64,000 bases of DNA from an uncultured Elusimicrobia bacterium (GCA_963702895.1 OY969767.1:1824001-1888000), one strand, 5' to 3'. Positions 3,196-26,100 are shown, counted from the stretch's first letter. The notes: generated by a model from the sequence alone, not told the origin. Translations and numbers: made by a program.

Positions 3196-3353
3196 TTTCC
3201 TCTCGGCAAGTGAGGTCTTCACAAGGCTTCCCTCCGCCTGTCCCTCATCACGCCCCAGCGATCGGGCGGGTGCTTTCGGGCCGAAGCGAATCTAACGAAG
3301 GGACATCATACTTTTCCACGGACCGCATGGCGTAAGTTTTTGTGGGAGCCGAT

Positions 3354-3852: not shown

Positions 3853-3873
3853 TACTTGTAAGAGCGCTTGTCT

Positions 3874-5859: not shown

Positions 5860-5944
5860 GATGAGGTCCTTTCTCAAAATCGTTACGAATAAAAAATCCC
5901 ATTCCAACGCGTAAGAGGAATGGGACGCACCCTTCATGGACATA

Positions 5945-6112
5945 CGAAGCAAGTCCGGTCCACCCAACCTTCCCGCGAAGGCCCTTACGTTATGGTGATC
6001 CATAGTAGATCGGGCTTTTACCGTTGCGGGGCAGTCCCGGAATTCCACCGGAGTTCCATATCCGCCATGAGTCGGGCGGACGAGCCCTCTCTCTCAACAA
6101 GAAGGCACTATG
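5945..6112 (-). promoter_or_regulatory. Cobalamin riboswitch
   Basis: Minus strand reads GGAACTCCGGTGGAATTCCGGGACTGCCCCGCAACGGTAA...GGGAAG, the conserved B12-element core, directly upstream of btuB; boundaries approximate. Confidence 0.85.
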
Positions 6113-6191
6113 GATCACAAATAAAGAACTGGCTGGATTATACCCTTGCGTTGACTTAACGTGTCAACCTGAAATTTGTAAAATGCAGCCT

Positions 6192-6710
6192 ATGAATACA
6201 AAAACGATTTCTCTTGTTGGGCTCATACTCTTGGCCGCTGTCCTTCGCCTGCTGCCTCACCCGTGGAATTTTTCACCCATCGCCGCGATGGCGCTCTTGG
6301 GAGGCGCGTCTTTGCGGACCCGAAGCGGTGCGCTGCTCGTCCCCCTGGCGGCTCTTTTCTTGAGTGATTGGGTCCTGGGCTTCTATCCCACGATGTTCGT
6401 CACTTACGCGGCCTTCGCCGCCGTGGTCATGATCGGAAGGCTCCTGAGCGACCAAGCCAAGGCGCCCAAGATTTTCCTCGCCTCCATGGCCGGCTCCATC
6501 ACTTTTTATGTGCTCAGCAATTTCGGAGTCTGGCTCTGGGATGGGCTCTATCCCCTGAACACGCAGGGCCTCGTCGCCTGCTACACCGCGGCGCTGCCCT
6601 TTTTCCAGGGGACGCTGGCTGGCGATCTGTTTTATGCCGCCGTGCTTTTTGGCGCGTTTCGTTTCGCGCAGGCCCGCTTCCCCGCCCTCCAACAGGCCTC
6701 GTCCATTTAG
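6192..6710 (+). CDS. BtuM-like (DUF6580) solitary S-component, putative cobalamin inner-membrane transporter
   Basis: RLLPHPWNFSPIAAMAL, LFLSD, SNFGVW, Y...LPFF..TL.GDL motifs; about 6 TM helices; divergent from btuB. Confidence 0.78.
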   Translation: MNTKTISLVGLILLAAVLRLLPHPWNFSPIAAMALLGGASLRTRSGALLVPLAALFLSDWVLGFYPTMFVTYAAFAAVVMIGRLLSDQAKAPKIFLASMAGSITFYVLSNFGVWLWDGLYPLNTQGLVACYTAALPFFQGTLAGDLFYAAVLFGAFRFAQARFPALQQASSI

Positions 6711-6722
6711 CACCCAATTTCG

Positions 6723-7874
6723 GTGATCGCCACGGAACCCTCCATCCAGGATTTTATTCTCCAAAATGAGCCGCGCCTGAGCACCCCCTACTACCTGCTG
6801 GACGAAGCACGACTGCGCCTGAATATGGAGAAGATCGCGCTGGTGCGTGAGCTCTCCGGCGCGAAATCCGTTCTGGCCCTGAAGTGCTTTTCGACTTGGG
6901 CGGCGTTCCCCCTCATGCGGCCCTACCTGGATGGCACGACCTCGAGCTCGCTCTTTGAGGCCCGCCTCGGTCATGAAAAATTCGGGAAGGAAGTCCACGC
7001 GTACAGCGTCGCCTTTCGTGAAGAGGAAGTGAAGGCGCTCCGGCCTTTTGCGACCAAGATCATTTTCAACTCCGTGTCCCAGCTGAAGCGTCTTTCCCCC
7101 CATGCCGCGGGTCTTCCCCTGGGCCTGCGGGTGAACCCCGGGGTGAGTTATTCTCATTTTGATTTGGCCGATCCCGCCCGAAAATGTTCCCGGCTAGGCG
7201 CCACGGACCCCGCGGAAATAGAAAGCGTCCTCGGCCAGATTTCGGGTGTGATGTTTCACTGCCATTGCGAAAACGATGACTTTGAAAAGTTCTGCCAGAT
7301 CCTCGAGCACATCGAGAAAACGCAGGCGCGCGTCCTCCAGAAAGTCCGCTGGGTGAGCCTCGGCGGCGGGATCTATTTTACGAAGGAAGGCTATCCGCTG
7401 GAGGCTTTTGCCCGGCGCCTGGCGGATTTCGCGAAGCGCTTCGACGTGCAAGTGTATCTCGAGCCCGGTGAAAGCGCGGTCACCCGCGCGGGGTTTCTCG
7501 TGACGCGGGTCCTCGACATCGTCCACAATGAAATGGACATCGCTATTGTGGACGCGGCCGTGGAAACCCATATGCTCGATCTTTTGATTTACAGGACGGA
7601 TGCTAAAATAGAACTTCCTGAAAATGGCCGGCATCGCTACATGATCGCCGGCCGCACGTGCCTTGCGGGAGACATCTTCGGAACATACAATTTCCCGGAA
7701 GCCCTGCGCGTGGGAAGCCTGGTCACGCTCTCAGACGCAGCCGGCTACACGATGGTGAAAAAGAACTGGTTTAACGGGGTCCCCATGCCCTCCATTGTCA
7801 TGAGGCGCTTGGATGGTCGCGCGGAGGTCGTCAAGACATTTACGTACGACGACTACCTCCGCACTTTATCCTAA
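6723..7874 (+). CDS. nspC: Carboxynorspermidine/carboxyspermidine decarboxylase
   Basis: TPYYLLDE, LALKCFS, SSLFEARLG, GLRVNP, SRLG, LGGG, LEPGE, TCLAGD, YTMVKKNWFNG. Confidence 0.93.
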   Translation: MIATEPSIQDFILQNEPRLSTPYYLLDEARLRLNMEKIALVRELSGAKSVLALKCFSTWAAFPLMRPYLDGTTSSSLFEARLGHEKFGKEVHAYSVAFREEEVKALRPFATKIIFNSVSQLKRLSPHAAGLPLGLRVNPGVSYSHFDLADPARKCSRLGATDPAEIESVLGQISGVMFHCHCENDDFEKFCQILEHIEKTQARVLQKVRWVSLGGGIYFTKEGYPLEAFARRLADFAKRFDVQVYLEPGESAVTRAGFLVTRVLDIVHNEMDIAIVDAAVETHMLDLLIYRTDAKIELPENGRHRYMIAGRTCLAGDIFGTYNFPEALRVGSLVTLSDAAGYTMVKKNWFNGVPMPSIVMRRLDGRAEVVKTFTYDDYLRTLS

Positions 7875-7894
7875 GGACGGGAGACAACAGCATC

Positions 7895-9130
7895 ATGAAA
7901 AAGAACGTACTGATTGTCGGAGCAGGCGGCGTCGCGCATGTGGCGGCCCATAAATGCGCGATGCACAACGATGTCCTCGGCGACATCTGCATCGCCTCGC
8001 GCAAAATCGATAAATGCGAGGCCATCCTCGAGAGCATCAAGCGCAAAGGCAATCTCAAGCTCAAGTCCAAGAAACTTTACGCTCGCCAGGTGGACGCGAT
8101 GGATGTGCCAGCCTTGGTCCGACTGATCCAAGACACCCGTTCCGAGATCGTCATCAATCTCGGAACGGCCTACATCAACATGTCCGTCCTGGAAGCCTGT
8201 ATCAACGCGGGCGTCGCCTACCTGGACACCGCCATCCACGAGGACCCCACGAAAGTCTGCGAGGACCCGCCGTGGTACGGCAACTACGAGTGGAAGCGCC
8301 GAAGCCGCTGCAAAGCCAAAGGCATCAACGCCATCCTGGGGATTGGGTTTGATCCCGGCGTGGTGAACGCCTACGCGGCGCTTGCGGCCAAAAAATATTT
8401 CGACAAGATCGACACGATTGACATCATGGACGTGAACGCCGGTTCGCATGGGAAGTTTTTCGCGACCAACTTCGACCCCGAGATCAACTTTCGCGAGTTT
8501 AAGAAGGTCTGGACCTGGATTGACCGCAAATGGGTCAGCCGGCCTGTTCACGCGGACAAGTGGACGTGGGATTTCCCGGTGGTCGGTAAGCAGACGGTCT
8601 ACCTCACGGGGCACGACGAGCTGCATTCGCTTTCCAAGAACATCGATGCGCAAAGCATCCGGTTTTGGATGGGCTTTAGCGAGCATTACATCAGCGTCTT
8701 TAATGTCCTCAAAAACGTGGGGATGCTCTCGGAAAAGCCCGTGCGCACCGCCGAAGGCGTCGACGTGATCCCCTTGAAGGTCCTCAAAGCCGTCCTGCCG
8801 GATCCCTTGTCCCTGGCGCCCAACTATAAGGGATTTACCTGCATCGGCAATCTCACGAAGGGCAAGAAAGACGGAGAGTACAGGGAGAACTTCATTTACA
8901 ACACCTGCGACCATGCCGCCTGCTACAAGGAAGTCGAATCCCAGGCCATTTGCTACACCGCAGGCGTCCCACCCGTGGCCGCGGCGATCCTGGTCGCCAA
9001 AGGGACCTGGAACCCCAAAACGATGGTCAATGTCGAGGAGTTGGAACCCGAGCCGCTCTTGAAGTTGTTGGATGGGATGGGACTTCCGACGAAAGTGCTC
9101 GACAAGACGCCCGCCGCCCAGCCGGCTTAA
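7895..9130 (+). CDS. Carboxynorspermidine/carboxyspermidine dehydrogenase (saccharopine dehydrogenase family)
   Basis: GAGGV Rossmann motif, YLDTA, GFDPG, FATNFDPEINFRE, HDELHSL; adjacent to nspC. Confidence 0.92.
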   Translation: MKKNVLIVGAGGVAHVAAHKCAMHNDVLGDICIASRKIDKCEAILESIKRKGNLKLKSKKLYARQVDAMDVPALVRLIQDTRSEIVINLGTAYINMSVLEACINAGVAYLDTAIHEDPTKVCEDPPWYGNYEWKRRSRCKAKGINAILGIGFDPGVVNAYAALAAKKYFDKIDTIDIMDVNAGSHGKFFATNFDPEINFREFKKVWTWIDRKWVSRPVHADKWTWDFPVVGKQTVYLTGHDELHSLSKNIDAQSIRFWMGFSEHYISVFNVLKNVGMLSEKPVRTAEGVDVIPLKVLKAVLPDPLSLAPNYKGFTCIGNLTKGKKDGEYRENFIYNTCDHAACYKEVESQAICYTAGVPPVAAAILVAKGTWNPKTMVNVEELEPEPLLKLLDGMGLPTKVLDKTPAAQPA

Positions 9131-9132
9131 AC

Positions 9133-11253
9133 TTAAGCAGCTTTGTTGGAGGCGGCCGGAGCTGCGATTTTTTCCATCACAAAGAAGAATTTGCTGCCTT
9201 TGCCGACCTCAGACTCCACCTGGATCGTGCTGTTGTGGGCCTCCACAATTCCCTTGCTGAAGGATAGACCGATACCGAAGCCGACCGCGCGGTCTTCGGA
9301 TTTGACCTGCTCAAATTTCCCAAAGAGTTTCTGGAGCGCCTCCGGGGGGATGCCGCGTCCATTGTCCTGAACGGCGATTTCCACGCCCGCGGGCACGGCG
9401 CGGGCGATGATCTTGACCCAGCCGCCTTCCATCGTATACTTGATGGCGTTTCCGGTGATGTTTTCCACGACACGTTCCATTAAGGAGGCGTCCGCCCGGA
9501 CCCAAAGCGTCGGATCATCGCACTCCGCGGTGAGGGTAATCTTTTTGGCCAGCGCCTGGAACTTCAGGTCCCCGGCGATTTTCTTGACCATCGCCTGGAC
9601 CTGCATCGGCACGGGATGGATGGCCAGCTTCCCGGCTCTTAAGCGCGCCAGGTTCAAGATGGTCTCCACGAGGCTCAAGGCCCGCTTGGCGGACTGCTTG
9701 GCGGATCCCACGAGTGTCCCCAGCTCCGCGTTGCTTTCCGGCACCTGGATTTCTCCCAATCCCAGATAGCCGATGGTCGCCGCCAGCGGCGTCCTCAAAT
9801 CGTGCGTGATGCCGTTAAAGAAGTCTTCCTTCATCTTGTCCAGCTCTTTGTCCTGCGTGATGTCATGGACCACGATCATCACGCCGAGCGCTCGGCCGTC
9901 CTCGGTATGGACCTGTTGGGCGATCACGCGCGCCCACCGCGAACGCCCGTGGACAGGAAACTCAAATTCGGCGGATTCGCTCTGCTTGGCATGGGAAAGG
10001 ACCGGCTCCAGAAGATCGGTCCACGGAGGGTACTCTTGCAGGGACTGCCAGGCCTTCTCAAAATCCGCTTTGCCGTGCCCTGCCACATCCATGGCCCATT
10101 GCCGGGAGGGCGCATTCGAAAAGAGAAGCTGGCCCTGGGCATCGACCATGACGATACCGTCTTGAATCGTAAAGAGGAGCGCTTCCACTTTCGACTTCTC
10201 ATCGATGATCTTTTCCACCTGCATCGCGTTATAGACCTGGAGCTCCTGCGTCATCTGATTAAAGGCCTTCCCTAAGGCTCGAAACTCCTCGAGCCCAAAG
10301 TTTTCCGGCACTTTAATATGGAATTCACGCTTGGACACGTGCCCGACGCCGCTCGCCAGTTTCGTAATGGGAGAGCTGATGTGGTGCAGCCAAAAATACC
10401 CGAAGAGGCCGATGCCGAGCACGCTTACGATCACCCAAAAGTAGGCCTGCGATTTTAATTTGGCGATTTTGGCGTAGGCCTCGGCTTGAGGCTGCGCGGA
10501 GAGGATAAACCAGCCGGCGCTCTCCACCCACTGGCCGGCCCCGACCGATGGCACGCCGCTCGGATTTTCAAACTCTCCCATCCAGATCTCGCGACCTTCC
10601 AAACGCTCACGGAAGAACTTCCACGCAGGCAGGAGCGCCTGGCCCACGCGGGTGTTTTGGGAGTCTCCCGCGATGGTCCCGGCGCTATCGATGAGCCAGA
10701 TATAACCCTGCTCGCCAGCTTGCTGGTCATAAAGAATTCTCTTCAAGGATTCCCAGCGGACCGACACATACAACCATTCGCCGCTCTCCAGAGGATAGAG
10801 GACGTCAAAAAAGGACCGGCCGTCCCGCTCGTAGACCGCGCCCGTATCCGCATGGCGGTCCGTGATCACGCTGAGAAATAATTTGTTAGCAGACAGGTCC
10901 AGGGGTGAACGGAACTCACGGATTTTCGTGTCGTAGGCCTTGGCGAGCTCACGGCCCCCAGCATTGAGCAAGGCGACACAAGCAAAATCATCATTGGAGA
11001 GGAGCGCATTGTTCAAGATCGCGATCTGCTCTCCCCACTGATGGCTCCTGGCGAGCAGCGGCGCAAAGGCCAAACGCATGTTGAGCTGCTGGAAATAGCT
11101 GCTCGTGTTCAAGGACAGGGCGTTGACAATGTGACGATGGAGATCGTAGATCTGCGCTTTGGATTCGCGCGTGTATTGGATGATTTTCACGCACGTCATG
11201 GTGACGGGAACGACGACGATCGCTAGGATAATGAGAAACCATCGGCTACGCAC
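9133..11253 (-). CDS. Membrane sensor histidine kinase (periplasmic Cache-like, HAMP, PAS, HisKA, HATPase)
   Basis: Two TM segments, HAMP (LGKAFNQM), ITHDLRTPL H-box, NAIKYT, DNGRGI, GFGIGL; likely GTG start at 11253 overlapping the upstream stop. Confidence 0.92.
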   Translation of the reverse strand: MRSRWFLIILAIVVVPVTMTCVKIIQYTRESKAQIYDLHRHIVNALSLNTSSYFQQLNMRLAFAPLLARSHQWGEQIAILNNALLSNDDFACVALLNAGGRELAKAYDTKIREFRSPLDLSANKLFLSVITDRHADTGAVYERDGRSFFDVLYPLESGEWLYVSVRWESLKRILYDQQAGEQGYIWLIDSAGTIAGDSQNTRVGQALLPAWKFFRERLEGREIWMGEFENPSGVPSVGAGQWVESAGWFILSAQPQAEAYAKIAKLKSQAYFWVIVSVLGIGLFGYFWLHHISSPITKLASGVGHVSKREFHIKVPENFGLEEFRALGKAFNQMTQELQVYNAMQVEKIIDEKSKVEALLFTIQDGIVMVDAQGQLLFSNAPSRQWAMDVAGHGKADFEKAWQSLQEYPPWTDLLEPVLSHAKQSESAEFEFPVHGRSRWARVIAQQVHTEDGRALGVMIVVHDITQDKELDKMKEDFFNGITHDLRTPLAATIGYLGLGEIQVPESNAELGTLVGSAKQSAKRALSLVETILNLARLRAGKLAIHPVPMQVQAMVKKIAGDLKFQALAKKITLTAECDDPTLWVRADASLMERVVENITGNAIKYTMEGGWVKIIARAVPAGVEIAVQDNGRGIPPEALQKLFGKFEQVKSEDRAVGFGIGLSFSKGIVEAHNSTIQVESEVGKGSKFFFVMEKIAAPAASNKAA

Positions 11254-11890
11254 GGCGTTTCTCCTTACGGGGGTTGAGCAGCACAATTTCAATGCGGCGG
11301 TTCAGTTCCCGGTTATCCTTCGAAATATTGGGCACCTTCGGCCGATAGGGACCATAGCCGCGGGCGGAGATCCGGGAGGGGTCGATCCCGGACTGCGTTA
11401 AAAAATGGATGACGCTAAAGGAGCGCGCCACGGAAAGCTCCCAATTGGAACGGTAGGCGGACCGGCGCCCCGGCGGGAGATCGTCCGTGTGGCCTTCCAC
11501 CACGAGCTCCCCGGGAAAGGCCCGCAATTCAGGGGCCAGTTTCTTGAGCAGCACCATGGCCTCGGGCTGCAGTTCCGCTCGGCCCGACGTGAACATGAGC
11601 CCGTCCGGCAGCTGAATATTGACGCGCTCCGCCTGGACGTCGAGCGCCGCCAATTTGTTCAGACGCTGCACCATGCCCACTTGAGCCTCTTGCGGGGCTC
11701 TGAGCTGCTGAAAGCGTCTTTCTTCCCAAGACACTTTTTTCGCCCAGAGCCGGTGCGCGAAGAGCATCAAAAAAAAGATCATGAGGATCGTCATGAAATC
11801 GCTAAAGGAGACGATCCAGATATGAGAGCTTTCGTCTTCGTGAGCTTCCAGGCTGCTGAAATCTTCCTCGGAATCGCGTACATTACTCAT
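11246..11890 (-). CDS. motB: MotB-like stator subunit 2 (TM Asp plus OmpA-like peptidoglycan-binding domain)
   Basis: WIVSFSDFMTILMIFF TM helix with the conserved Asp; VEGHTDD, SNWELSVARS, GYGPYRP, NRRIEI. Confidence 0.88.
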   Translation of the reverse strand: MSNVRDSEEDFSSLEAHEDESSHIWIVSFSDFMTILMIFFLMLFAHRLWAKKVSWEERRFQQLRAPQEAQVGMVQRLNKLAALDVQAERVNIQLPDGLMFTSGRAELQPEAMVLLKKLAPELRAFPGELVVEGHTDDLPPGRRSAYRSNWELSVARSFSVIHFLTQSGIDPSRISARGYGPYRPKVPNISKDNRELNRRIEIVLLNPRKEKRRA

Positions 11891-12518
11891 AGCGTAAGAT
11901 GCCGATCTCGATACGGCGGTTGGCGGCCCGGTGCTCGGGCGTGTCATTGGGAAGCTTGGGGTGGAACTCACCAAAAGCGGCGACGCCGAGGCGCTCCGGG
12001 GGAATGCCTTCCGCCGCGATCAAGTACTGCACCACGGACATCGCCCGCGACAGCGACAACTCCCAGTTGGACGCATAGCGGCTCCCGGGCCGAAGGGGCG
12101 TGTTGTCCGTGTGCCCTTCCACAAGGACGGTGTAGGGAACGCGCTTAATGGCCGTGGCCACGGTATGCAGGACCAGCTGGCTCTCGGCCCGGAGCTGCCC
12201 GGCGCCTGTCTCAAAAAGGATTTCGTCAGGAAGCGCCATTTGCAGGCGGTCTTCCCGCGCGACGACCGGAGCGGTCTGGTCCGAGACCATCTTCAAGTCG
12301 CGCGTGATGTCGTCGTACCAGGGGGCGGCTTTCTTCGAATACTCCATGCGCGACCTCATGGAGGCGATCGCGTCCGGAATCGCGTCGGGCCCAAAAAAGG
12401 ACAGCGCGTAAAGACTCAGGAAGAGCAGGAAGAGGTTCGTGATGAGATCGGAATAGATGGTCAGCCAGATAAACTGGTTGCGGCGCTCCACGAAGACAGC
12501 GGAAAGCTTATCAATCAT
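11883..12518 (-). CDS. motB: MotB-like stator subunit 1
   Basis: WLTIYSDLITNLFLLF TM helix with the conserved Asp; VEGHTDN, SNWELSLSRA, FGEFHP, NRRIEI. Confidence 0.88.
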   Translation of the reverse strand: MIDKLSAVFVERRNQFIWLTIYSDLITNLFLLFLSLYALSFFGPDAIPDAIASMRSRMEYSKKAAPWYDDITRDLKMVSDQTAPVVAREDRLQMALPDEILFETGAGQLRAESQLVLHTVATAIKRVPYTVLVEGHTDNTPLRPGSRYASNWELSLSRAMSVVQYLIAAEGIPPERLGVAAFGEFHPKLPNDTPEHRAANRRIEIGILRYE

Positions 12519-12577
12519 GGTTCGACTCGTTTTTCGGCTCGCTCACCATGACCCTGAGCGACACAGGAGTCGAAGGG

Positions 12578-13387
12578 TCATGCGGCCCTTCTGCCAGTGG
12601 ACGCCTGGGCGGTGCTCGGCGTGGTTTGGAGTTGCTCACGCTTGTGCGCGTCCGCAAACGTTCGCAGTTTACGCAGCGTGATGACGGGGACCTCGTTTTG
12701 CTGGATGCATTCCACGCCTTCAATAATGAGTTGCTTGAGATAGATCTCTTCCTGCGAATACACGTTGAGCTTGCCCGCGATCGGCAGGAAAAGAAAATTG
12801 GCGCTAAAGATTCCATAGAACGTCGCGGTCATCGCGACCGCCATCGCGGCGCCAATCGTTTTGGGGTCGGAGAGGGTCATCAAGACTTGGACCACCCCCA
12901 CGAGGGTCCCGAGGAGCCCAAAGATGGGCGCGTACGAGGCGGCGCTTCGGAACACATTGGACACCATCACATGGCGGTCACGGGCAAAACGGATTTCCTT
13001 GAGCAAATTACTGCGGACAATGTCCGCCGGGACGCCGTCGAGCACCATGCGCAGGCCGTCCACGAGATAGGTGATCCTGATTTGCGCTAAATCCGCCTCC
13101 AGGCTTTCCATACCCTGACGACGGGCTTTCTCGGAGAGCGCGACGATCGTCCGGATCACGAGGGTCGTGTCCGGCCTGTCTCCCGGGAAGAGAAAGATGA
13201 GGACCGCGCGCGCGGCGGGAAAAATGATGGCGCTCGGGTAGGTGAGGAGGATCGCGCCGAGCGTCCCCCCAAAAACCAGGAGGATCGCGTGCGTGTTCAG
13301 AATGAGCCCGACAGAATTCCCCTGAACCAGGACGTATCCGACGCTCCCCAGTCCAATCAGATAGCCGAGCGGCGTCATCCAATCCAT
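12578..13387 (-). CDS. motA: MotA/PomA-type stator subunit
   Basis: LVFGGTLGA, ARRQGMESLE (rotor-contact Arg/Glu positions), DGLRMVLDG, APIFGLLGTLVG, ATFYGIFSAN..FLPIAGKL. Confidence 0.92.
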   Translation of the reverse strand: MDWMTPLGYLIGLGSVGYVLVQGNSVGLILNTHAILLVFGGTLGAILLTYPSAIIFPAARAVLIFLFPGDRPDTTLVIRTIVALSEKARRQGMESLEADLAQIRITYLVDGLRMVLDGVPADIVRSNLLKEIRFARDRHVMVSNVFRSAASYAPIFGLLGTLVGVVQVLMTLSDPKTIGAAMAVAMTATFYGIFSANFLFLPIAGKLNVYSQEEIYLKQLIIEGVECIQQNEVPVITLRKLRTFADAHKREQLQTTPSTAQASTGRRAA

Positions 13388-14895
13388 TATTTACGCTCCG
13401 GCAAGGCGATGCGGCCGTCGACGAGGAGTCTCCGGCCGGTCTCCTGCATTTTCATTTTGGCATCCGCAATGGCCGTGCGGTCCTCCGCGGCCAAATCGAG
13501 TTCCTGCTGGAGGATTTCGCGAATCGCGACCGGGAGCCTCCTTAATATAGCTTCCCGAAAATCGGGTTTCTCGTCCCGCAAGGCCAGGGCCGTGGTCGGA
13601 TAACCGACTTCCTGGACCAAGAGCCTTAGCGCCCCCGCGCTGATGACCCCCAAGTCCTCAATAAAAAATGTCTTTCGCCGCAGGGCCTGGGCCAAGAGGG
13701 GCGACTCTTGATTAAGCGACCCTAAAAGGGTCCTTTGGGTCTGCGGCTGGGTGAGTTGATAGACCGATTGGATCCATTCCTCTCCCCCCACCAAGTAAGG
13801 GAGCTTGGACTTCACGTGTTCCTCCAGCTCCTTGACAACATCCGGCGGGACTTCGCGGGCCTGGCTGAGCTCCCGCATGATGGTGGTCTGAACAGAAGCG
13901 TCGAGCGAGCCGAGGACGCGGCTCGCCCACTCGGCAGGCAGGTAAGCCAAGATCAGGGCACACTGCGCCGGCGAGAGGCCGCGGCAAAGAATGGGGAGCT
14001 TGTTGAGCTGGTCCTCTCGAATAAACCGGAACGGGCGGGCGCCGGCCTCTTCGGGATCGAGAGAGCCATTGCCGTTGTTCCCCAAAGGGTACATTCCCCC
14101 GTTGGCGGCAGCGGCGGCGTTGGTTTTGCTTGGCGCGTTCGAAACCGTATAAGCGGCTTGCTCTCCCACGCGGGGCAGCACCGCGAGCAGCCTATTGAGA
14201 AAGGCGCGCATGGGGCCAAAGAGGAACGCGATAAAGAAGACAAACACCGCGACGAGCGCCCCGGCGATCATGAGGACGGGGGCGTTGGCCCGGTTCAAGA
14301 GGCTTCCCCAAAACGATTTCTCCCCGCCCGCGGCCTGGATTTTCCCTTCGGTGGTCGCCGGCTGCAGGAGGTTGGAGTTTTGAACCTGCATTTCGTCCCC
14401 GCGCAGAGGATTGAATGGGATGCTGGCCGTGATCACTTCGCGGATATTGCGGATCTGTTCCGCGGTCACGTCCCGGGCGACCAGAATCGAGATCGAGATT
14501 TTTTTAACGAGCGTCTCCGCGGAAAAAGCGCTCACCGTCGTTTCGCTCTGCTCTTCCGGATTGGCCACAAACTCCTTTTTTCCCGGCACGCCCGGCAGCA
14601 CGTATTGGTTTTGGCCCAAGAGGGTGTTGCCGCCCCGCCGCGCGGTGGTGGATTGGACCGAAGGACGCTCACGGTTTTCCATCTCCACTTTGACCGTCAC
14701 CAGATAACTGCTCGGCGGAAGGGTCTTGGCGAGGATCCCTTCGATCCGGTTCTGGATCTGGGTCTCAATCTGGATCTGTTCTTGTTCATACTTGGCCATG
14801 ACCCAGGCCGAAGCCGCCCCGATCAGACACAAGCTCGCCACGAACCCGAAGAGGCGCGCGCTAAGTCGTCTGGACCATGGAAGATTCATGTTCAT
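13387..14895 (-). CDS. FliF C-terminal ring domain - TM - FliG middle/C-terminal domain fusion protein
   Basis: N-terminal hydrophobic segment; FliF RBM3-like IQNRIEGIL..VTVKVEM..LPGVP..KKISISILV..RGDEMQV; TM; FliG-like PFRF..ALILAYL..GG..FFIEDL..ALALR..ELD..DGRI. Confidence 0.8.
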   Translation of the reverse strand: MNMNLPWSRRLSARLFGFVASLCLIGAASAWVMAKYEQEQIQIETQIQNRIEGILAKTLPPSSYLVTVKVEMENRERPSVQSTTARRGGNTLLGQNQYVLPGVPGKKEFVANPEEQSETTVSAFSAETLVKKISISILVARDVTAEQIRNIREVITASIPFNPLRGDEMQVQNSNLLQPATTEGKIQAAGGEKSFWGSLLNRANAPVLMIAGALVAVFVFFIAFLFGPMRAFLNRLLAVLPRVGEQAAYTVSNAPSKTNAAAAANGGMYPLGNNGNGSLDPEEAGARPFRFIREDQLNKLPILCRGLSPAQCALILAYLPAEWASRVLGSLDASVQTTIMRELSQAREVPPDVVKELEEHVKSKLPYLVGGEEWIQSVYQLTQPQTQRTLLGSLNQESPLLAQALRRKTFFIEDLGVISAGALRLLVQEVGYPTTALALRDEKPDFREAILRRLPVAIREILQQELDLAAEDRTAIADAKMKMQETGRRLLVDGRIALPERK

Positions 14896-14901
14896 CGTCC
14901 T

Positions 14902-16017
14902 TTAAGGTGTCCCGATCGCTCCCGGCGGCAGGACGAGCACCTGCCCCGCGTTGAGCTGATAGGGGTTCTTCAAATAGGCCCTGTTGGCGTCATAGAGTTT
15001 CCGCCAAACATTCTTGTCCTTGTAGATGCGCTGCGCGATCGACATGAGCGTGTCGCCTTTTTGGACCTTATAGGTGAGCGCCTGGGAAGGAGCGCGGTCG
15101 GCTTCTGCGGCGGTCTGGCTCATGAAGCTCTTGAGCACGTCGTTCTTCGGATCGCGCTCCAGGGCCTGCGTCCAATACTGGCGGGCCTGCTTCACTTGGC
15201 CCATCGCGTAATAGACGGAGCCCAGACGCGTCAGGGCCAAGGGATTCTCAGGCTCGAGGTCCAAGACCTCCTGGCATTCCTTCGCGGCGACGAGGTATTC
15301 TCCCGAATAGATTTTCTCGAGGGCCTTTTGCAGCTTCTGATCGATGAGGTTGAGCCTCGCGTCGAGGATCTCGGAGGACTCGTTGGGGAAGGTCCGTTTG
15401 ACCAGGTCGACGAGCTGCCCGATGACGGGGTTTTTCGTGTCTTTTTGCTGCGCGTACAAGAGGAAGTTGATCGACTTCGAGGGTTCGTTCTGCAGAAATT
15501 GTGTGACCCCCTTGATGACGAGGTCCCCGGACGCGGATTGCACTTCGCTCATCTGAGGAACGATCACCACCACCGAATCCATCTTCTGGCGGAGCTCGGT
15601 GATCGTCCGGTCGGTGGGATTGGTGCGCTCGGCTTCCCGGAACGTGTCCAAGGCCCCTTTGAAGTTGCCGGCCTGCACCGATGCAAACGCGCTCTGGAAG
15701 AGCTCCTGGGCTTTCTGGCGGGAAGCGGCGCTCACCGTCTGAACGGCCTGTTCATCCGCCAGGAGCTGGGCCCGCTCATCCTCGAGCGCCTTCGAGTCTT
15801 TCTTCCGGACCTTATGGAGTTTGATCAAGCGGTCCAAGAGCACAATGCGCTCTTGAAGGGAGATTCCCTGTTCCACCCGTTTCCTGTAATTCTCGGTTTG
15901 GATGTCGAGTTCATCTTTGGAGGCCGCTTCATCCTCGTCCCACCGCCAGGCATGCGCAGGCGGCGTGCAGGCGCTTCCCGCAAAGGACAAAAGGCAGATG
16001 AGGGTGAGCCATTTCAT
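14902..16017 (-). CDS. Secreted TPR-repeat protein with a C-terminal LysM domain
   Basis: Signal peptide MKWLTLICLLSFAGSAC..AHA with GGAG RBS; TPRs (ALTRLGSVYYAMGQ..A..YW..ALE.DP.N); LysM YKVQKGDTLMSIA..IY..W.KLYDAN; open frame extends to 16122. Confidence 0.85.
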   Translation of the reverse strand: MKWLTLICLLSFAGSACTPPAHAWRWDEDEAASKDELDIQTENYRKRVEQGISLQERIVLLDRLIKLHKVRKKDSKALEDERAQLLADEQAVQTVSAASRQKAQELFQSAFASVQAGNFKGALDTFREAERTNPTDRTITELRQKMDSVVVIVPQMSEVQSASGDLVIKGVTQFLQNEPSKSINFLLYAQQKDTKNPVIGQLVDLVKRTFPNESSEILDARLNLIDQKLQKALEKIYSGEYLVAAKECQEVLDLEPENPLALTRLGSVYYAMGQVKQARQYWTQALERDPKNDVLKSFMSQTAAEADRAPSQALTYKVQKGDTLMSIAQRIYKDKNVWRKLYDANRAYLKNPYQLNAGQVLVLPPGAIGTP

Positions 16018-16105
16018 CCTAGACTCCATCTTAAGTGTAAGGCGCTTTTGTAAAGCTCCTATCACATCGATGTAAAGACGTTGTAAATTTATCGGTGATT
16101 TCATA

Positions 16106-17116
16106 TCAATTCTTCCTTCCAAACCTAAACGACATGGACACCTGGTTCGTCCCGAAGGTCCCTTTTACGCCGGACAGGGGATAAATTAAAGCGTAATCGA
16201 CCTGGAGGTTATCCCACCGATAAGAAAATCCAAGGGAGGTCATCTGATATTGGCGCTGGCCGAAGCCCAGGCCGCCGCGGAACCCAAAGCCTCCTTTGAG
16301 CCACCGCTCCCCGCCGATCAGGAACCGGAATTCCCGAGAGGTGAACTCGCGGGCGGAAATCTCGACATTGACCGCTGAAATCTTGGTGCGCCGCGCCAGG
16401 GCCGCTTTGTAGATGGACCCCACTTTATCCGTGTCCGAGGTGGAGAGCGCCATGTTCGGGCTGTTCAGGTTGAGGATCGCCAAGCCCAGGCCGTAAATTC
16501 TCGAAATCCGGTACTGAGCGCCCAGATCAAAGCTCGCGGCTGATTTGGAGGTCCCGTTCTGCGCGAAGAGGGGATCTGGGGCCCCCAAGGAGGCGCCTGT
16601 ATCCGAGTTGATGGCGTTATCGGTATAAGCGTCGGTCCCAAAGGATTTTTTAAGAAATTTGAGGCTTCCCCCCAGGTTCCAGCGGTCCCGGACCGAATGC
16701 GCGTAATGCAAAGACATGGTGCTCTCGGAGTAGAGCCCTGCCAGGGAGAGCGACAGGTAGCTGACGCCAAAAGTGCCCCGTTTGGCCGTGGGGTGACCGT
16801 AAGCGACATACGAGCGGCTGATCGAGGAGCCATCCGTCAGGCCCGAATAGAGTTTGGAATAAGAGGCGTTCAACTCGGAACGGTTGAGCTGGGCAAGACC
16901 GGCGGGGTTGTAGTAAGAGGCCAGGACATCATCCGCGAGACCGGCAAAGCTGCCGCCGAGGCCCGCTTGACGGGCCCCCGTGGGGAGCTCTTCGAAGGAC
17001 GCCCAGGCGGAACGCGAGAGGGCAACCGAGGCAAGAACGATGAAAAGGAATCGGACGACAGAGGCCGCCCTGGGCACGAATTGGCTGACTTCTCTTGTAT
17101 AAGAGCCTACGCGCAC
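16106..17116 (-). CDS. Outer-membrane beta-barrel of the PorV/PorP-SprF/UPF0164 (FadL-like) type
   Basis: Signal peptide ending AWA, GARQAGLGGSFAGLADD..ASYYNPAGL hallmark, alternating beta-strands, C-terminal QVSMSFRFG. Confidence 0.8.
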   Translation of the reverse strand: MRVGSYTREVSQFVPRAASVVRFLFIVLASVALSRSAWASFEELPTGARQAGLGGSFAGLADDVLASYYNPAGLAQLNRSELNASYSKLYSGLTDGSSISRSYVAYGHPTAKRGTFGVSYLSLSLAGLYSESTMSLHYAHSVRDRWNLGGSLKFLKKSFGTDAYTDNAINSDTGASLGAPDPLFAQNGTSKSAASFDLGAQYRISRIYGLGLAILNLNSPNMALSTSDTDKVGSIYKAALARRTKISAVNVEISAREFTSREFRFLIGGERWLKGGFGFRGGLGFGQRQYQMTSLGFSYRWDNLQVDYALIYPLSGVKGTFGTNQVSMSFRFGRKN

Positions 17117-17296
17117 GTTCCCTTGTACAGGGGGACCTTCTCAAAGGAAAGTAAATTATGTGTAACAATAGATCAGATCGATAAATCAATCCGTTTGAGA
17201 AGCTGGTGAGATTCTTGTGACGTGCGCTGTGAGGTTCTTGTGAGCGGGGTGGTTCTCTCTAAGAACGACCCCGAAAGATTCGGTTGCGCAAGATCA

Positions 17297-17545
17297 CCCT
17301 CTCCCGCCGCGAGGCGGGAGAGGGCGATGCCCAAAGGGCAACGGGTGAGGGCACGCTCATTCCTCTCGACGAAAATCTGCCCTCATCCTTCCCTTCTCCC
17401 ACCTTCGGCGGGAGAAGGAAGACTTCAGTTCCCCTCTCCCGCCGTGAGGCGGGAGAGGATTAGGGTGAGGGCCAAGTGTGCCCTCATCCTTCCCTTCTCC
17501 CACGTTCCGCGGGAGAGGGAGGAAAAGTCTTCCTTCTCCCAACTA
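17297..17545. repeat. Cluster of REP-like palindromes (CCCTCTCCCGC...GCGGGAGAGGG family)
   Basis: Four hairpin units; near-identical copy at 22446-22549. Confidence 0.75.
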
Positions 17546-17672
17546 GCGGCGGTAGAGGGGGTTACCGAGAACCAAAGATACCCGGCCGAAGAGATGACGT
17601 AAAAGGAGCACCCTCGGGGACGACGGTTTTTGTTCCATTCCAATCGACAGGTTTCGTTGATATAATCGCTCT

Positions 17673-21931: not shown

Positions 21932-22321
21932 CTATCGGGCGACGGCGAGGGTGCCTGTGGCGTGTTCGCCTTGAAATTCCAGCTGGTAAATGTAGATGCC
22001 GCCCGCGACGGTCTTGCCGTCTTCGTCTTTGCCATCCCAAAGGAGAACGTCGGGCGTGGTGCCCTGCTGGAGGCTGGCGACGCGCGCGCCGCTTAAGTCG
22101 AAGACCGAGCCCGTCACCGGCAACTGTTCGGGATTGTCGAGCTCAAAGCGCGCTTTGTCGTTAAAGCCGTCGCCGTTGGGCGTCAAGATCCGGCAGGCCA
22201 CCGCCGTCAAAGTGACCGAACCCAGCGAGGCGAGCGCCTCCACGGACGAGGGACGAGCAAGCAGAGACGAGAACAACAGTATCCCTACGATGATGAGTCG
22301 CGTTGCTGAATAGATCTTCAT
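21932..22321 (-). CDS. Small secreted protein consisting of a gliding-motility-associated (CHU_C/type-B CTD-like, FlgD-like) domain only
   Basis: Signal peptide followed by ILTPNGDGFND...VFDLSGARV...WDGKDEDG..V.GGIYIYQ; GGAGG RBS. Confidence 0.82.
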   Translation of the reverse strand: MKIYSATRLIIVGILLFSSLLARPSSVEALASLGSVTLTAVACRILTPNGDGFNDKARFELDNPEQLPVTGSVFDLSGARVASLQQGTTPDVLLWDGKDEDGKTVAGGIYIYQLEFQGEHATGTLAVAR

Positions 22322-22581: not shown

Positions 22582-25500
22582 TCACCGTGCCACCACAATC
22601 GTGCCGGTTTCGGGCGTGCCGCCGACGTCGACCTGATACACATAGATCCCGCCCGGCACCGCCTTGCCGCCGCCGTCTTTGCCGTCCCAGGCGAGTGACG
22701 AATCGGGGTTCGGCCCTGCCACAAGGCTCGCGACATAGGCCCCCGTGATGTCATACACCTTGCCCGAAAGCGGCAAGAGCTCAGGGTTGTCAAACTGGAA
22801 GATGGCCTTGTCGTTCCAGCCGTCGCCGTTCGGCGTGATGATGCGCGGATAGACCCGCGTGAGCGTCACCCCCGGCGCGTGCGTCGCTGCGCGGATCTGG
22901 AAAGAGCCCGCGCGCGAGCCGGTGGCGCTCACCGTCTGATCGGCCGTGTTCACGAGGCCCGTCGTTTTCACCCACTCCAGGCCGTTAAACCAGAAGAGCG
23001 AAAGCTGCTCGGCGGCGTTCTCCGCGGTGATGACCGGCGCCCGCGCCGGTGCTCCCCAGATCGTTCGCCCCATCGCCGATTCGCCGCCTCGTCCCTCCGG
23101 GGCCCCGGCCACGACGTGCCCGCCCATCACGGTATAGCCTATCACCACGCGTAGTGACGCCGGGTTAAAGAGCAAGTCCGTCACGTCCGTGCCCGTCACG
23201 CCGTTTTCAATCGCAAAACGCACCGAGCGCAAAACGCGCCCCGTTTCTTCCGACGTCACCTCGTCCACACCCATCCAGAGGTCCGCCCCATAGTTGTTTT
23301 GGCTCCCCCGCAGAACGTTCGCCACGGCCTGCGGCATCTGCGCGTGCGTGATGTTGTCCGGCCCCATGAAGAAGTGGTGGATGTCGGAGGTGTCATCGAT
23401 GATTTGGCCCCATGCGGAAACCCGGGCGCTCGTGTCGATCGCGCGCAGACAGTAATACTTGACGTCACTCGCCAGAGCCACCCCTTGCCATTCTTCGGTC
23501 GCCACCGTCGTCAGAAGCGTCCAGAGCGCCCTCGGCAAATGGACGCTCGAAGAGGTGTAGACCTGGTAACCCGCCAGGTTGATAAGGGCCGTGCCGTCTT
23601 CGCGCTGCGTCACGCGGCTCCAGCGGTACGTCATCTGATACGTCCCGCCGCCCAAATCGACGCGCTCACCCCAGAGGCCCAGCGGCCGTTTGGGAACGCT
23701 CGCCACGCCTGCGGTCATCACGAGCACCGTGTTCGTGTAAGCGGTGGGGACTCCTCCTTCGCTGATCGCGCGCACGCGGTAGACGTAAGCGGTGCCCGCG
23801 CTCACCGTGTAATCCTGATAAGCGGTCGCGCGGATGGCGCCCGCCTGCGTGAAGGTGGAGCCGTCGGTCGAGCGCTCAATGGAATAAAGCGTAACGGGTG
23901 GATTGGCCCCGCCGTTCCACGTGAGCCACACGTACGTGCTGCTCACGCCCGTCGTGGAAAGAACGGTCGGCGCTTCGGCCCAGGTGTAGGTGCTCCTGTA
24001 ATTCGACCAGCCGGAGACGCGCCCGCTCGTGAGGCTGTGCGCGCGCACGCGCGCGGTGTATTGGGCGTTGACGTTTAAGCCCAGCACGGCCGTCGTCGGG
24101 CCCGCCACGACGTTCGAAGTGACATGCGTGCCGAACGGATCGGCCGGGGCGAGGTCCACGTCGTAAACGATCTGCGGGCCTCCGGTCAGGCCCCAGGCCA
24201 CCGTGACGCTCGTGCGCTGAACATCGGGGAAACCCGTCAAAGTCGGAATGAGGAGCGGCGTGATGGTGCCGGTGATCGAGCTCCCAATGAAGAGATACGG
24301 ACTGTCTGCGCCCGCCCAGCCGAGCGCCTGCACGCGCGCCCAGTAGGTGGTGTCTTGGTTCAAGGCGGTGAGTGTCGCCGTCACGTCCGACGTCGTGGCG
24401 GTGGCGGTGGAGGCGCCCAGCGCCGAGATGCTGGAGAGCTCCACGCGGAAGTTCGTGCCCGCGGCGTTGATCGAGCCTGACCAGCTGGCCGTGATGCTGG
24501 AGGGGCTCACGTTATCGAAGGCTCCGCCCGTGGGAACGGCCGCCACGGTGATCGTGGAAGCCGGCACGGTGTTGGCGTAGGCGGTCGTGTCGTCATAGAG
24601 ACTGCCCACGCGCAGGTAATAGGTGGCGTTGGCCATGAGGCTCTGGATCGTGAGCGTGCTCAAGGCGACGTCCGTCGTGACCGAGGAGCGCGCGATCGGG
24701 GTGAAGCTTGCGCCCGTGGAGGCTTCGGCGCTGTAGCCCACGTCCGGCGTGACGCCGCCCCAAGTGAGACTGATGCTAGACGCATAGACCGCCGTAAACG
24801 TCGGGGTGGCGGGCGGCGGACCCGGCAAGGTGATCGTGCTCACCCAGGTCGTAAAGTACGGCACATCGTTCCAGTTGAGTCCGCCGACCCGCAGATACGT
24901 GAGCTTGCCGCGGCGCAACGAAAAGACGGTGAGGCTTGTTTGGAAGGTGTCCGAGGTGGCGCTCGAGCGGACCGTGCCGCTAAAGCTCGGGAGTGTCGAA
25001 GCATGCACCAAATACCCTTGGGAGCCCGCGGCGCCAAGGCCCGTCCAAGCAAGCGTCACGCTGCTTTGGCCGACGTCGGTGATCGTGACGTCCGGTACCT
25101 CATCGGTAAGCGTGGCCGCGCCGGCGTTGTTCGACAAATACCCGGTGTTGCCGGCCGCGTCCGCTCCTTTGATCGCAAAGTAGTACGTGGTGTTAAAGGC
25201 CAAGTTCCCGGCGGTCTTGGCTTCGAGGCCCCCGGGCGGAAGCGGCGACCAGGTGTTCGTGTAGATCGGCGCGCTCACGAAAGCGACTTCGTCTGCAAAC
25301 GGGGTGTTCTTGTAGCGCGCCGAGTACGAAGTGGCCTGGCCGTTCGAACCGAAAGCGGTCGGCGCCGTCCACGAGAGGACCAAGGTGCCCGTGCTCGGGC
25401 CCGTGATGACGGCGAGGTCTTCGATCGAATCGGGGTGCGACACGAGGTTCGCGAAGCCCGAATAGACAAAGTAGGTGGTGCCGGTGAAGAGGCTTCCTCC

Positions 25501-25857
25501 CGGTTTGCCGACGGTCGAGGTGAGCTTGTAGCTCGCCGAGGTCCCGCGGGCCGATCCCGCGCTTGTCACGTCGCTGCGCCGGATGCGGTAGTTCGTCGAC
25601 GACATATCGCTTCCGGCGAAAACGGGGAAAACGCAGAACGAACAAAGCAGAGACACGAGAGCAAAGAAACGAAAGCAGAGAGCTCTGCTTTGCATGCTTT
25701 GCTTTCGTCGGTCTGCTCTGCGTGCTCTGCTTTGATGGCTGAACGCAAAGATCTCAGAGCAGAAGATCCAAAGCAGAGACACGAAAGCAAAGAAACGAAA
25801 GCAGAGCTTTCTGCTCTCGTTTCTCTGCTCTCGTTTCTCTGCTCTGACCTTGGTCAT
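22582..25857 (-). CDS. Secreted multi-fibronectin type III protein with a C-terminal gliding-motility-associated (type-B CTD-like) domain
   Basis: About 6-7 FN3 modules (LSWTAP, L..NTTYY...), C-terminal IITPNGDGWND..WDGKDGGG..VPGGIYVYQ; start chosen at ATG 25857 after GGAG/GAGG, uncertain. Confidence 0.85.
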   Translation of the reverse strand: MTKVRAEKREQRNESRKLCFRFFAFVSLLWIFCSEIFAFSHQSRARRADRRKQSMQSRALCFRFFALVSLLCSFCVFPVFAGSDMSSTNYRIRRSDVTSAGSARGTSASYKLTSTVGKPGGSLFTGTTYFVYSGFANLVSHPDSIEDLAVITGPSTGTLVLSWTAPTAFGSNGQATSYSARYKNTPFADEVAFVSAPIYTNTWSPLPPGGLEAKTAGNLAFNTTYYFAIKGADAAGNTGYLSNNAGAATLTDEVPDVTITDVGQSSVTLAWTGLGAAGSQGYLVHASTLPSFSGTVRSSATSDTFQTSLTVFSLRRGKLTYLRVGGLNWNDVPYFTTWVSTITLPGPPPATPTFTAVYASSISLTWGGVTPDVGYSAEASTGASFTPIARSSVTTDVALSTLTIQSLMANATYYLRVGSLYDDTTAYANTVPASTITVAAVPTGGAFDNVSPSSITASWSGSINAAGTNFRVELSSISALGASTATATTSDVTATLTALNQDTTYWARVQALGWAGADSPYLFIGSSITGTITPLLIPTLTGFPDVQRTSVTVAWGLTGGPQIVYDVDLAPADPFGTHVTSNVVAGPTTAVLGLNVNAQYTARVRAHSLTSGRVSGWSNYRSTYTWAEAPTVLSTTGVSSTYVWLTWNGGANPPVTLYSIERSTDGSTFTQAGAIRATAYQDYTVSAGTAYVYRVRAISEGGVPTAYTNTVLVMTAGVASVPKRPLGLWGERVDLGGGTYQMTYRWSRVTQREDGTALINLAGYQVYTSSSVHLPRALWTLLTTVATEEWQGVALASDVKYYCLRAIDTSARVSAWGQIIDDTSDIHHFFMGPDNITHAQMPQAVANVLRGSQNNYGADLWMGVDEVTSEETGRVLRSVRFAIENGVTGTDVTDLLFNPASLRVVIGYTVMGGHVVAGAPEGRGGESAMGRTIWGAPARAPVITAENAAEQLSLFWFNGLEWVKTTGLVNTADQTVSATGSRAGSFQIRAATHAPGVTLTRVYPRIITPNGDGWNDKAIFQFDNPELLPLSGKVYDITGAYVASLVAGPNPDSSLAWDGKDGGGKAVPGGIYVYQVDVGGTPETGTIVVAR

Positions 25858-26100
25858 TTCGTCCTCTCCGTCTCTGCGCAAAGGGTCTCGTCGCACAACA
25901 GCAGTAACGGCAGCGCAAAGCGATCAGAGAAAAGCGCAGAGCTCTCAGCTTGACGCTGTTCGCTTCTCGCTGCTCGCTGCCGTGGCTTATCCGATGATCG
26001 CTCGTCTCTCATCTCTCGTCTCTCGTTTCTCTGCTCTCGTTTCTCTGCTCTCGCTTCTCCGCTCTCGTTTCTCTGCTTTCGTTTCTCTGCTCTGACCTTT
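25640..26100. repeat. Heptamer repeat tract (TCTCGTT/TCTCTGC/TCTCATC) with inverted purine-rich copies
   Basis: Direct reading of the sequence; related tracts at 19290-19430, 28725-29015, 31185-31265 and 32445-32670. Confidence 0.8.

Follow-up and report, generated by a model that had tools for sequence, protein, structure and literature searches.

An operon joining a FliF–FliG rotor fusion, MotAB-type stator genes and a PorV-fold barrel in Elusimicrobiota genomes without flagella

A 64,000-nt stretch of DNA from an uncultured Elusimicrobia bacterium (GCA_963702895.1, OY969767.1:1824001-1888000), referred to here as the window, carries a seven-gene operon on its minus strand (9133..17116) in which a natural fusion of FliF and FliG stands with flagellar-type stator genes, an outer-membrane barrel of the PorV fold and a sensor kinase. 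The finding is firm and extends throughout the phylum, and the system is neither a flagellum nor a standard type IX secretion system (T9SS) motor. Most plausibly, it works like a flagellar rotor and stator harnessed to T9SS carriers, and we give a probability of roughly 0.45 to a rotary machine that is driven by ions, independent of any flagellum and coupled to surface proteins of the T9SS type. What was observed directly is the gene content, the anatomy of the domains, the synteny, the co-inheritance and the absence of a flagellum; ring formation, rotation, contact with the TPR protein, the carrier role and the output are inferred.

Composition of the operon and anatomy of its motor parts

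Open reading frames (ORFs) searched against Pfam and NCBIfam gave the order barrel, TPR-LysM protein, rotor fusion, motA, motB1, motB2 and histidine kinase. The genes and their principal domains are as follows.

16106..17116, minus strand: PorV-fold outer-membrane barrel of 14 strands; NF033709 (PorV_fam) E 5e-18, below the cut-off
14902..16104, minus strand: periplasmic TPR-LysM protein; ATG at 16104, longest frame from 16122; Pfam TPR and LysM, hydrophobic N-terminus, 400-aa database form
15115..15735, minus strand: shared TPR module of ~200 aa (TPR-LysM residues 130-336), recurring in all operon subtypes
14926..15072, minus strand: LysM peptidoglycan-binding domain (PF01476, E 1e-8), in this subtype only
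13387..14895, minus strand: rotor fusion, 502 aa; signal peptide, RBM3 with a short collar, one transmembrane helix, linker, FliG M and C domains
14362..14793, minus strand: FliF RBM3 ring-building domain with collar insertion, residues 35-178 (structural superposition, profile alignment)
14221..14277, minus strand: single inner-membrane helix, residues 207-225, equivalent to FliF TM2 (hydropathy scan and alignment)
13402..14037, minus strand: FliG middle and C-terminal (torque) domains, residues 287-498 (PF14841 E 6e-12, PF01706 E 5e-12)
12578..13387, minus strand: flagellar-type MotA, keeping equivalents of E. coli R90, E98, P173 and P222
11883..12518, minus strand: MotB1; transmembrane helix with channel Asp, MotB_plug, OmpA-like domain
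11246..11890, minus strand: MotB2; channel Asp present in the window, MotB_plug, OmpA-like domain
9133..11253, minus strand: membrane sensor histidine kinase, dCache-HAMP-PAS-HisKA-HATPase

An earlier reading of the sequence alone had placed seven co-directional, abutting or overlapping genes here; all seven minus-strand frames were found as it placed them, and their junctions were confirmed. The barrel's stop codon lies at 16106 and the ATG of the TPR-LysM gene at 16104, a gap of 6 nt separates the end of the latter (14902) from the start of the rotor fusion (14895), and the fusion overlaps motA in a TAATG at 13387. The motA–motB1 spacing is 59 nt, and overlaps of 8 nt join motB1 to motB2 (11890/11883) and motB2 to the kinase gene (11253/11246). 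A relative with 77% identity has the same gene order from TPR-LysM through the kinase. Profile searches returned matches to YscJ_FliF_C, FliG_M, FliG_C, MotA, MotB and PorV, and the calls of MotA (MotA_ExbB), of two MotB (MotB_plug and OmpA, twice) and of a kinase were borne out by its domains.

The rotor fusion is a doubly truncated molecule. YscJ_FliF_C is matched at 24.4 bits (cut-off 23.8), and a profile built from 73 fusions aligns only to E. coli FliF 237-494 (E 1e-16) and FliG 119-325 (E 4e-39); thus, a signal peptide takes the place of TM1-RBM1-RBM2, and FliG-N is gone. The fusion itself had been correctly recognised from the sequence, but not as one of two incomplete partners. In flagellar FliF, RBM1 and RBM2 hold the export gate. 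A Pfam match to FliG_N (23.1 bits, below the cut-off) coincides with FliG_M and was rejected as a real domain. The predicted structure of the fusion has a mean predicted local distance difference test score (pLDDT) of 81, with the collar insertion and the linker unresolved. In this model, RBM3 superposes on FliF 8z5v with Z 13.2 and a root-mean-square deviation (rmsd) of 1.7 Å over 101 residues, and the FliG part reaches Z 14.5 to FliG 3usw and 8wiw, so that both folds are, as modelled, intact. The FliG part of the monomer is closer to clockwise-state structures (rmsd ~6 versus 13 Å), but a single model cannot show direction and we did not use this result.

Conservation was assessed over 83 fusion genes, including those of the window, L001 and L002; one further fusion (in L098) was dropped by the gene picker. 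Whole FliG M and C domains are kept in all fusion subtypes. In the FliM-binding EHPQ motif, E and P are kept, H is outside the six commonest residues and Q occurs in 9/83. Within the collar insertion, a Pro-Gly pair (residues 101-102) aligns to the GVPG stretch of E. coli FliF, with P101 invariant and G102 present in at least 90% of the 73 profiled fusions. Flagellar FliF densities run from the collar top into the rod, their sequence being left unassigned in the available text (10.1101/2020.12.05.413195); the Pro-Gly loop of the fusion may grip a different partner. In one unusual locus (L088:7017-10751), the rotor fusion lies inside a frame of 1244 aa whose end gives a weak CHU_C match to a C-terminal domain (CTD), and it sits on a long tree branch.

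The stator is better matched to the flagellum than to Ton/Tol-type motors. The window MotA scores E 2e-53 and 3e-52 against the NCBIfam MotP/PomA models (below cut-off) versus 0.015 against TolQ, and by sequence it is of the flagellar type rather than ExbB/TolQ. Both prolines, P173 and P222, are kept in 63/63 MotA. The charged contacts with FliG are kept unevenly. The R90/D289 pair is largely retained (K/R at the R90 site in 56/63 MotA, Glu at the D289 site in 51/83 FliG), while most MotA and most fusions have lost their member of the E98/R281 pair (Glu at the E98 site in 13/63 MotA, Gly at the R281 site in 56/83 fusions). In the window, the FliG sites R281/D288/D289 read A/Q/E, and the MotA R90 and E98 equivalents are kept. 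A strong MotA match (E<1e-38) was found in 4/5 FliG_C-positive versus 1/31 FliG_C-negative genomes, in a sample of 36 hand-picked genomes from which two weak matches near 1e-4 were excluded.

The two MotB proteins are unlike. In 36 tandem motB pairs, the first gene carries the channel Asp in 36/36, and the second has Asp in 18, Asn in 16 and Ser in 2; 12 rows of this count, which the pattern missed or misread, were entered from a separate reading. A first MotB that always has the Asp beside a second that varies suggests that MotB1 and MotB2 form a heterodimer. A 227-aa OmpA protein at 1.588 Mb in the source genome was considered as a MotB of the motor and rejected, its gene being lipoprotein-like.

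Distribution, synteny and co-inheritance without a flagellum

The source genome (G000) is a single contig of 2.72 Mb, 98% complete. The export gate was judged by FlhA (PF00771), which had no match in this genome and matched 4/14 control genomes; FliP, FliQ, FliR and FlhB were not searched. Likewise, the rod (PF00460), flagellin (PF00669), FliM/FliN (PF01052), CheW (PF01584) and the N-terminal part of FliF with RBM1/RBM2 (PF01514) had no match in the genome, and all of these models matched controls. The lack of flagellar parts, first noticed in the window, thus extends to the nearly complete genome, where no complete flagellum sharing this fliF, fliG and motAB, the outcome named beforehand as fatal to the idea, was found. 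A second fusion gene in the same genome encodes 649 aa with a TPR tail and lies with flbD, motA and motB at C1:2.30 Mb.

In a set of 301 genomes from the phylum, 106 have FliG_C, and the 6 with FlhA are all among them. FliG_C is nearly absent from two large small-genome families (1/88 and 1/89), which are probably gut lineages, and present in 104/124 other genomes. Of 105 FliG_C-positive genomes, 80 were tested with the window fusion, which matched 78 of them, mostly along residues 30-500. Fusion frames of 450-700 codons are intact across at least 30 families, with up to 6 copies per genome, and two genomes (G064 and G242) each have FlhA as well as two fusion loci. In a tree, the fusions form a group (support 0.88) that excludes E. 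coli FliG and five flagellar-type FliG from the phylum, and fusion subclades correspond to operon types. One genome without an FlhA or MotA match (G123, L003) has a lone flagellar-type FliG on a short contig, possibly a contamination. Beyond the phylum, the commonest phyla of Atlas look-alike clusters are Cloacimonadota, Bdellovibrionota and Bacteroidota, which are leads only; when 20 cluster representatives were checked, all 7 clusters with an organism name were Elusimicrobiota. A single-protein metagenome scan gave no matches.

Synteny was examined in 80 regions taken from 150 listed best matches, a choice that was not random. A PorV-like barrel lies directly upstream of 31/83 fusions and no more than four genes upstream of 44/83. 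This adjacency is not due to chance, because the 2.72-Mb source genome has only 12 strong PorV-like barrels. The TPR module lies within -4 to +5 genes of 65/83 fusions; for 6 others it was found farther away within the region, and for 1 there is a weak match. Most relatives have the barrel and the TPR part fused in one gene, and the window clade has the two split. A motA gene is near 56/83 fusions; one motB or more lies near 54 and a pair near 36, and a kinase is near or fused to 28. The source genome has exactly two strong copies of the TPR module (236 and 198 bits, the next at 31.5) for its two fusion genes. Among 33 metagenome loci, the order barrel, TPR-LysM, fusion was found in 13/14 with room upstream, the exception (L152) belonging to a distant subtype. 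Consequently, the synteny of the barrel and TPR-LysM genes with the motor genes, on which the first reading had staked its case, holds in relatives.

Partner trees track the fusion tree (rho 0.57-0.79, against a permutation maximum of 0.27), and in paralog tests, partners follow the fusion subtype and not the genome in 23/23, 27/29 and 28/29 cases.

Several subtypes depart from the window's layout. In the exceptional locus just mentioned (L152:2064-15357), an AAA ATPase gene is followed by a tandem pair of rotor fusions and a coiled-coil gene, with a divergent neighbouring cluster that looks chemotaxis-like by eye. Another subtype (L046, L067, L079, L085 and kin) has no PorV barrel; it has a 640-aa protein of no known family with a beta-barrel-like end, a free TPR module and FecR genes. 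In a coiled-coil subtype, c-di-GMP-I riboswitches lie upstream of 4/5 tested operons, which fits a role in motility or adhesion.

The link to type IX secretion

The barrel had been called PorV/PorP-like, and it is the PorV half of that call that the matches support. In addition to NF033709, its profile matches PorV 6h3i_F (E 3e-31), which is also the best Foldseek match of the model (pLDDT 89, TM-score 0.67), with FadL-family barrels close behind. For PorP/SprF, no model was listed for the barrel at E<=0.1, and none was among the listed fold matches. LysM had been placed in an envelope-spanning core; however, only 9/66 loci with TPR-module-type genes carry it, and it does not belong to the core.

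A candidate for the sprA-like translocon, which genomes with the operon had been expected to carry, is present: a 1811-aa SprA-like protein matches TIGR04189 with E 2.5e-50 (171 bits versus a cut-off of 200). The source genome also has 25 ORFs that match a home-made CTD profile, in addition to its 12 strong barrels. GldM and GldN had no matches there, but no positive control matched either, and GldL and GldK were not searched. A gene with a CTD stands directly before 32/44 motor-linked barrels, encoding 604-2539 aa in 19 cases and 128-225 aa in 13, and barrel clades pair with CTD types. This is the layout of type B cargo and carrier in Bacteroidota, where the cargo gene is followed by the carrier barrel, according to the available text of PMC12618676. 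The CTD of one cargo protein (L058) passes the Por_Secre_tail cut-off, and those of the window are below it.

Two genes of the window outside the operon encode proteins of this kind.

22582..25896, minus strand: fn3-repeat surface protein of ~1100 aa with a type B-like T9SS CTD; four fn3 domains, weak CHU_C
21932..22321, minus strand: CTD-only protein of 129 aa, with a signal peptide and a type B-like CTD (TIGR04131 E 2e-4, below the cut-off)

These two proteins have the CTD type with which the barrel clade of the window is paired, and in L136 a 55% identical fn3 gene and a CTD-only gene stand directly before the barrel. We have therefore added both as likely parts: they probably belong to the motor system, with the fn3 protein as the probable cargo of the barrel. 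Relatives of the fn3 protein lie within fusion operons in L040, L041, L045, L090, L093 and L100, and CTD-only relatives of 128-142 aa directly precede the barrel–TPR-LysM gene in L040, L041, L042, L043 and L045. These short genes were at one point taken for response regulators, an assignment that was rejected since they are CTD-only proteins.

The second motor of the source genome offers a larger example of candidate cargo. Its cargo half (C1:18564-72714; L114, L118, L119) lies apart from its rotor and stator genes. It consists of a giant Ig-like protein of ~14,800 codons (a 13,707-codon frame and, past a one-base frame break, a CTD frame of 1099 aa), then a barrel-TPR gene, then coiled-coil genes of 1609 and 762 aa. 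Elsewhere in the genome (C1:2185276-2232109), there is an array of 12 large proteins with near-identical CTDs, of which 11 are encoded in tandem on the same strand.

Elsewhere in the window, an 8601-codon frame at 33619-59424 (minus strand) has G8, parallel beta-helix and DUF5122 repeats and ends in a repeat-rich region without a CTD; a second long open frame upstream (58694-64000, minus strand) overlaps it, and the pair looks like one giant surface-protein gene split by frame shifts. Among the source genome's frames of at least 1500 codons, 16/31, including one of 12,935 codons, have a short terminal tail whose last residue is Ala, in most cases as Ala-Ala preceded by basic residues, and Ala-Ala ends are also found on MotA, the kinase and the second rotor fusion. 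Such tails resemble an ssrA-type degradation tag or, alternatively, an unknown export signal. On the kinase side of the operon (1738-9130) lie decarboxylase and saccharopine-dehydrogenase-like genes, probably for polyamine synthesis, and a TonB-dependent receptor, with the same neighbours in L001. Four copies of a 27-nt palindromic REP-like repeat (17293-17558) separate the barrel gene from a PIN-like toxin gene. An Rfam search had no matches in the window, L002, L114, L033 or L034, and a promoter scan was uninformative (2 sites versus 2.4 by chance). Among the sequencing runs listed as matching, none was of RNA, and the best share was 0.11.

Proposed mechanism, competing explanations and significance

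In the mechanism we propose, the rotor fusion would form an inner-membrane ring, with RBM3 outside and FliG inside. Five MotA, together with what is probably a MotB1/MotB2 pair held to the wall through OmpA-like domains, would turn it, probably in one direction only, because the genome has no match for FliM, FliN or CheW. Having neither export gate nor rod, the ring may engage on its periplasmic side the conserved TPR module, a candidate coupler between rotor and barrel. That module would be joined, by fusion or as a separate partner, to a PorV-like barrel that carries CTD-bearing cargo of its own once this has been exported via the SprA-like translocon. Phylum-wide, the most likely job would be to pull on or move the cargo, in surface motility or actuated adhesion. 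In the window's subtype, the LysM tether and the kinase suggest a pull on a wall-held complex that may also be read as a signal. Complex prediction lends weak support to contact between RBM3 and the TPR module, with a score of 0.33 versus 0.00 for the best of 3 controls. The score mark was reached by 116/157 solved and 2/215 mismatched pairs, with only 18/157 solved pairs and both mismatches at 0.60 or less; the RBM3-TPR runs share at least 45% of contacts, with a partner pLDDT of at least 80. The prediction fits the synteny without proving binding.

Published work, here taken from the available portions of each source, offers precedents for two of these steps. A Salmonella mutant with a FliF–FliG fusion lacking FliG-N still rotates (PMC6445934), and in Flavobacterium an adhesin is joined to the moving part by a dedicated carrier barrel (PMC12635249).

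A number of observations weigh against the rotary machine. At the R281 site of the fusions, Arg falls outside the six commonest residues, and Gln takes the place of D288 in 45/83. The regions sampled were not random; within them, 39/83 fusions have no barrel up to four genes upstream and 27/83 no motA nearby, although some loci end at contig edges. The shared trees could also come from simple operon inheritance. The fn3 cargo is directly adjacent in only 1/11 close metagenome loci with upstream room, the other 10 having HAD (mostly also methyltransferase) genes before the barrel, as in the window, and 13/32 linked CTD genes encode no adhesive domain. No riboswitch was found near the window's subtype. 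With LysM on the TPR protein, the barrel side should be held still, as PorE does for static cargo, and cargo-carrier-PorE operons in Bacteroidota do form static complexes (PMC12618676). Finally, rotation and motility are inferred from genes.

The alternative that survives best, although we still think it unlikely, is an energised envelope sensor. Here, the stator would load the ring against wall-anchored barrel and cargo, and surface contact would alter load or ion flow, to be reported by a linked kinase, diguanylate cyclase or adenylate cyclase with little net movement. What makes load sensing a real rival is the LysM of the window's subtype together with its signalling partners. A kinase follows motB2 in 9/9 metagenome loci that reach that far, and likewise in L001 and L033; a receiver-GGDEF gene does so in L035-L037; the barrel-less subtype has FecR genes and, in L046, a CHASE2 cyclase gene; and in L101, L104, L109 and L110 a histidine kinase is fused in frame to the rotor N-terminus with consistent membrane topology. 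The CTD-only cargo and the static precedent of PorE also favour a sensor. However, kinases accompany only the 28/83 loci counted above, in several unrelated layouts, most subtypes lack LysM, and cargo of at least 2000 aa, up to the giant protein of the second motor, is adhesin-like.

We judge it improbable that the motor is a dedicated secretion helper, replacing GldLM/GldKN for some substrates by pulling TPR-bearing carrier–cargo pairs from the SprA-like translocon. In its favour are the SprA-like gene, CTD proteins and barrels of the source genome, the uncontrolled failure to find GldM and GldN, the pairing of barrel clades with CTD types and, from the available text of PMC12635249, the fact that ejection of the carrier–substrate complex is the energy-requiring step in Bacteroidota. 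Nevertheless, the SprA-like gene is found in 261/301 genomes, including 86/88 and 52/89 of the two nearly rotor-less families, and PorV-like barrels persist in 21/31 FliG_C-negative genomes tested. The translocon therefore does not need the motor. Rotor and stator are lost together while SprA stays, and, as far as gene presence tells, the motor is not a general secretion engine; an essential role as general T9SS energiser was rejected for this reason. The suggestion that the machine had been repurposed for secretion, gliding or moving adhesins is thus weakened in its first part, and gliding or adhesin movement stays a candidate output.

More doubtful again is a static ring scaffold or channel, as in SpoIIIAG, with MotAB doing Ton/Tol-like pulling and FliG serving merely as a docking site. 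RBM3-only rings exist (the fusion matches the SpoIIIAG profile at E 9e-5), R281 is lost, and the second MotB is often without Asp, but whole FliG M and C domains in all subtypes, a flagellar-type MotA and the largely kept R90/D289 pair speak against it. That the genes are a decaying remnant of a lost flagellum is barely credible and was rejected: a few members of the phylum do have true flagella, but the frames are intact in many families and up to 6 copies, form a separate tree group and coexist with FlhA in G064 and G242.

Turning to known systems, the Myxococcus Agl-Glt machinery has one A subunit and two B subunits, TPR proteins and outer-membrane barrels, with AglRQS of the TolQR type and no FliG ring, and PorE of Bacteroidota carries a TPR domain. 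The Elusimicrobiota system shares with Agl-Glt the A/two-B make-up, TPR proteins, barrels and, in one subtype, long cytoplasmic coiled coils, but differs in its FliG ring components and in a MotA far closer to MotP than to TolQ. With the flagellar motor core, it shares the RBM3/collar fold, TM2, FliG M and C, flagellar-type MotA, MotB with a plug-region transmembrane Asp and OmpA-like domain, and the FlbD gene beside the second fusion copy. In contrast to that core, it has one polypeptide with a signal peptide for TM1-RBM1-RBM2, no FliG-N, FliM/N, export gate, rod or filament, two unlike MotB, a largely lost R281/E98 pair, and a linked TPR module and PorV-like barrel. The Salmonella deletion fusion (PMC6445934) also joins FliF to FliG without FliG-N and rotates with a clockwise bias, but it keeps RBM1/2, FliM/N and the whole flagellum, whereas the window's fusion is natural and without these. 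Bacteroidota T9SS and gliding (PMC12635249, PMC12618676) have in common with it a SprA-like translocon (a candidate here), CTD cargo, a cargo gene directly before the carrier barrel and an ion-driven 5:2 motor nearby. There, however, GldLM works on an outer-membrane track with SprF carriers and a cysteine tail, while here MotAB would work on an inner-membrane FliF/FliG ring with PorV-fold carriers and a TPR tail, GldM/GldN being not found in an uncontrolled search. The wall-anchored type B cargo-PorP-PorE complex (PMC12618676) likewise combines cargo gene, carrier barrel and peptidoglycan-binding partner, but through an OmpA-like anchor instead of LysM, and here rotor and stator follow.

The genes have been glimpsed before. 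The available text of 10.1101/2022.07.08.499144 reports that most free-living Elusimicrobiota have motAB, flbD and fliG without flagellar structural genes, calls their role enigmatic and notes flagellum-less magnetotactic Elusimicrobiota; that portion mentions neither fusion, operon nor PorV, and its supplement may show more. PorV, type IX, motA, fliG and gliding are all absent from the main text of 10.1101/765248. In the available text of PMC12505986, the MotAB-type stator is treated as flagellum-specific and Elusimicrobia are never named. The claim that no system of this composition had been described consequently fares well for the operon, for which, as for a natural FliF–FliG fusion, we found no description in a literature search whose coverage excluded most subscription journals and supplements; for the orphan motAB and fliG genes it does not, as these had already been noted.

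In the boldest reading, to which we give less than even odds, the machine would be a third kind of bacterial surface motor, with a single-gene MS/C-ring lacking export gate and rod, a heterodimeric MotA5-MotB1-MotB2 stator perhaps needing only one channel Asp, and a TPR clutch on T9SS carrier barrels that moves or spins adhesins. Flagellar-type stators and a minimal rotor persist in ~100 non-flagellated genomes of one phylum, in several paralogous subtypes, and tie a motor to type IX parts usually described only in Bacteroidota. If it rotates, its four small genes would be the simplest natural rotor–stator set, testable in E. coli, and would open to test the need of FliG–MotAB torque for the rest of the basal body, a stator with one aspartate, and a motor existing apart from the export apparatus. 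If this is true, the FliF-RBM3/FliG/MotAB module works as a stand-alone engine, a living model of a motor without type III export, and it would explain the orphan motAB and fliG genes and the flagellum-less magnetotactic Elusimicrobiota of 10.1101/2022.07.08.499144.

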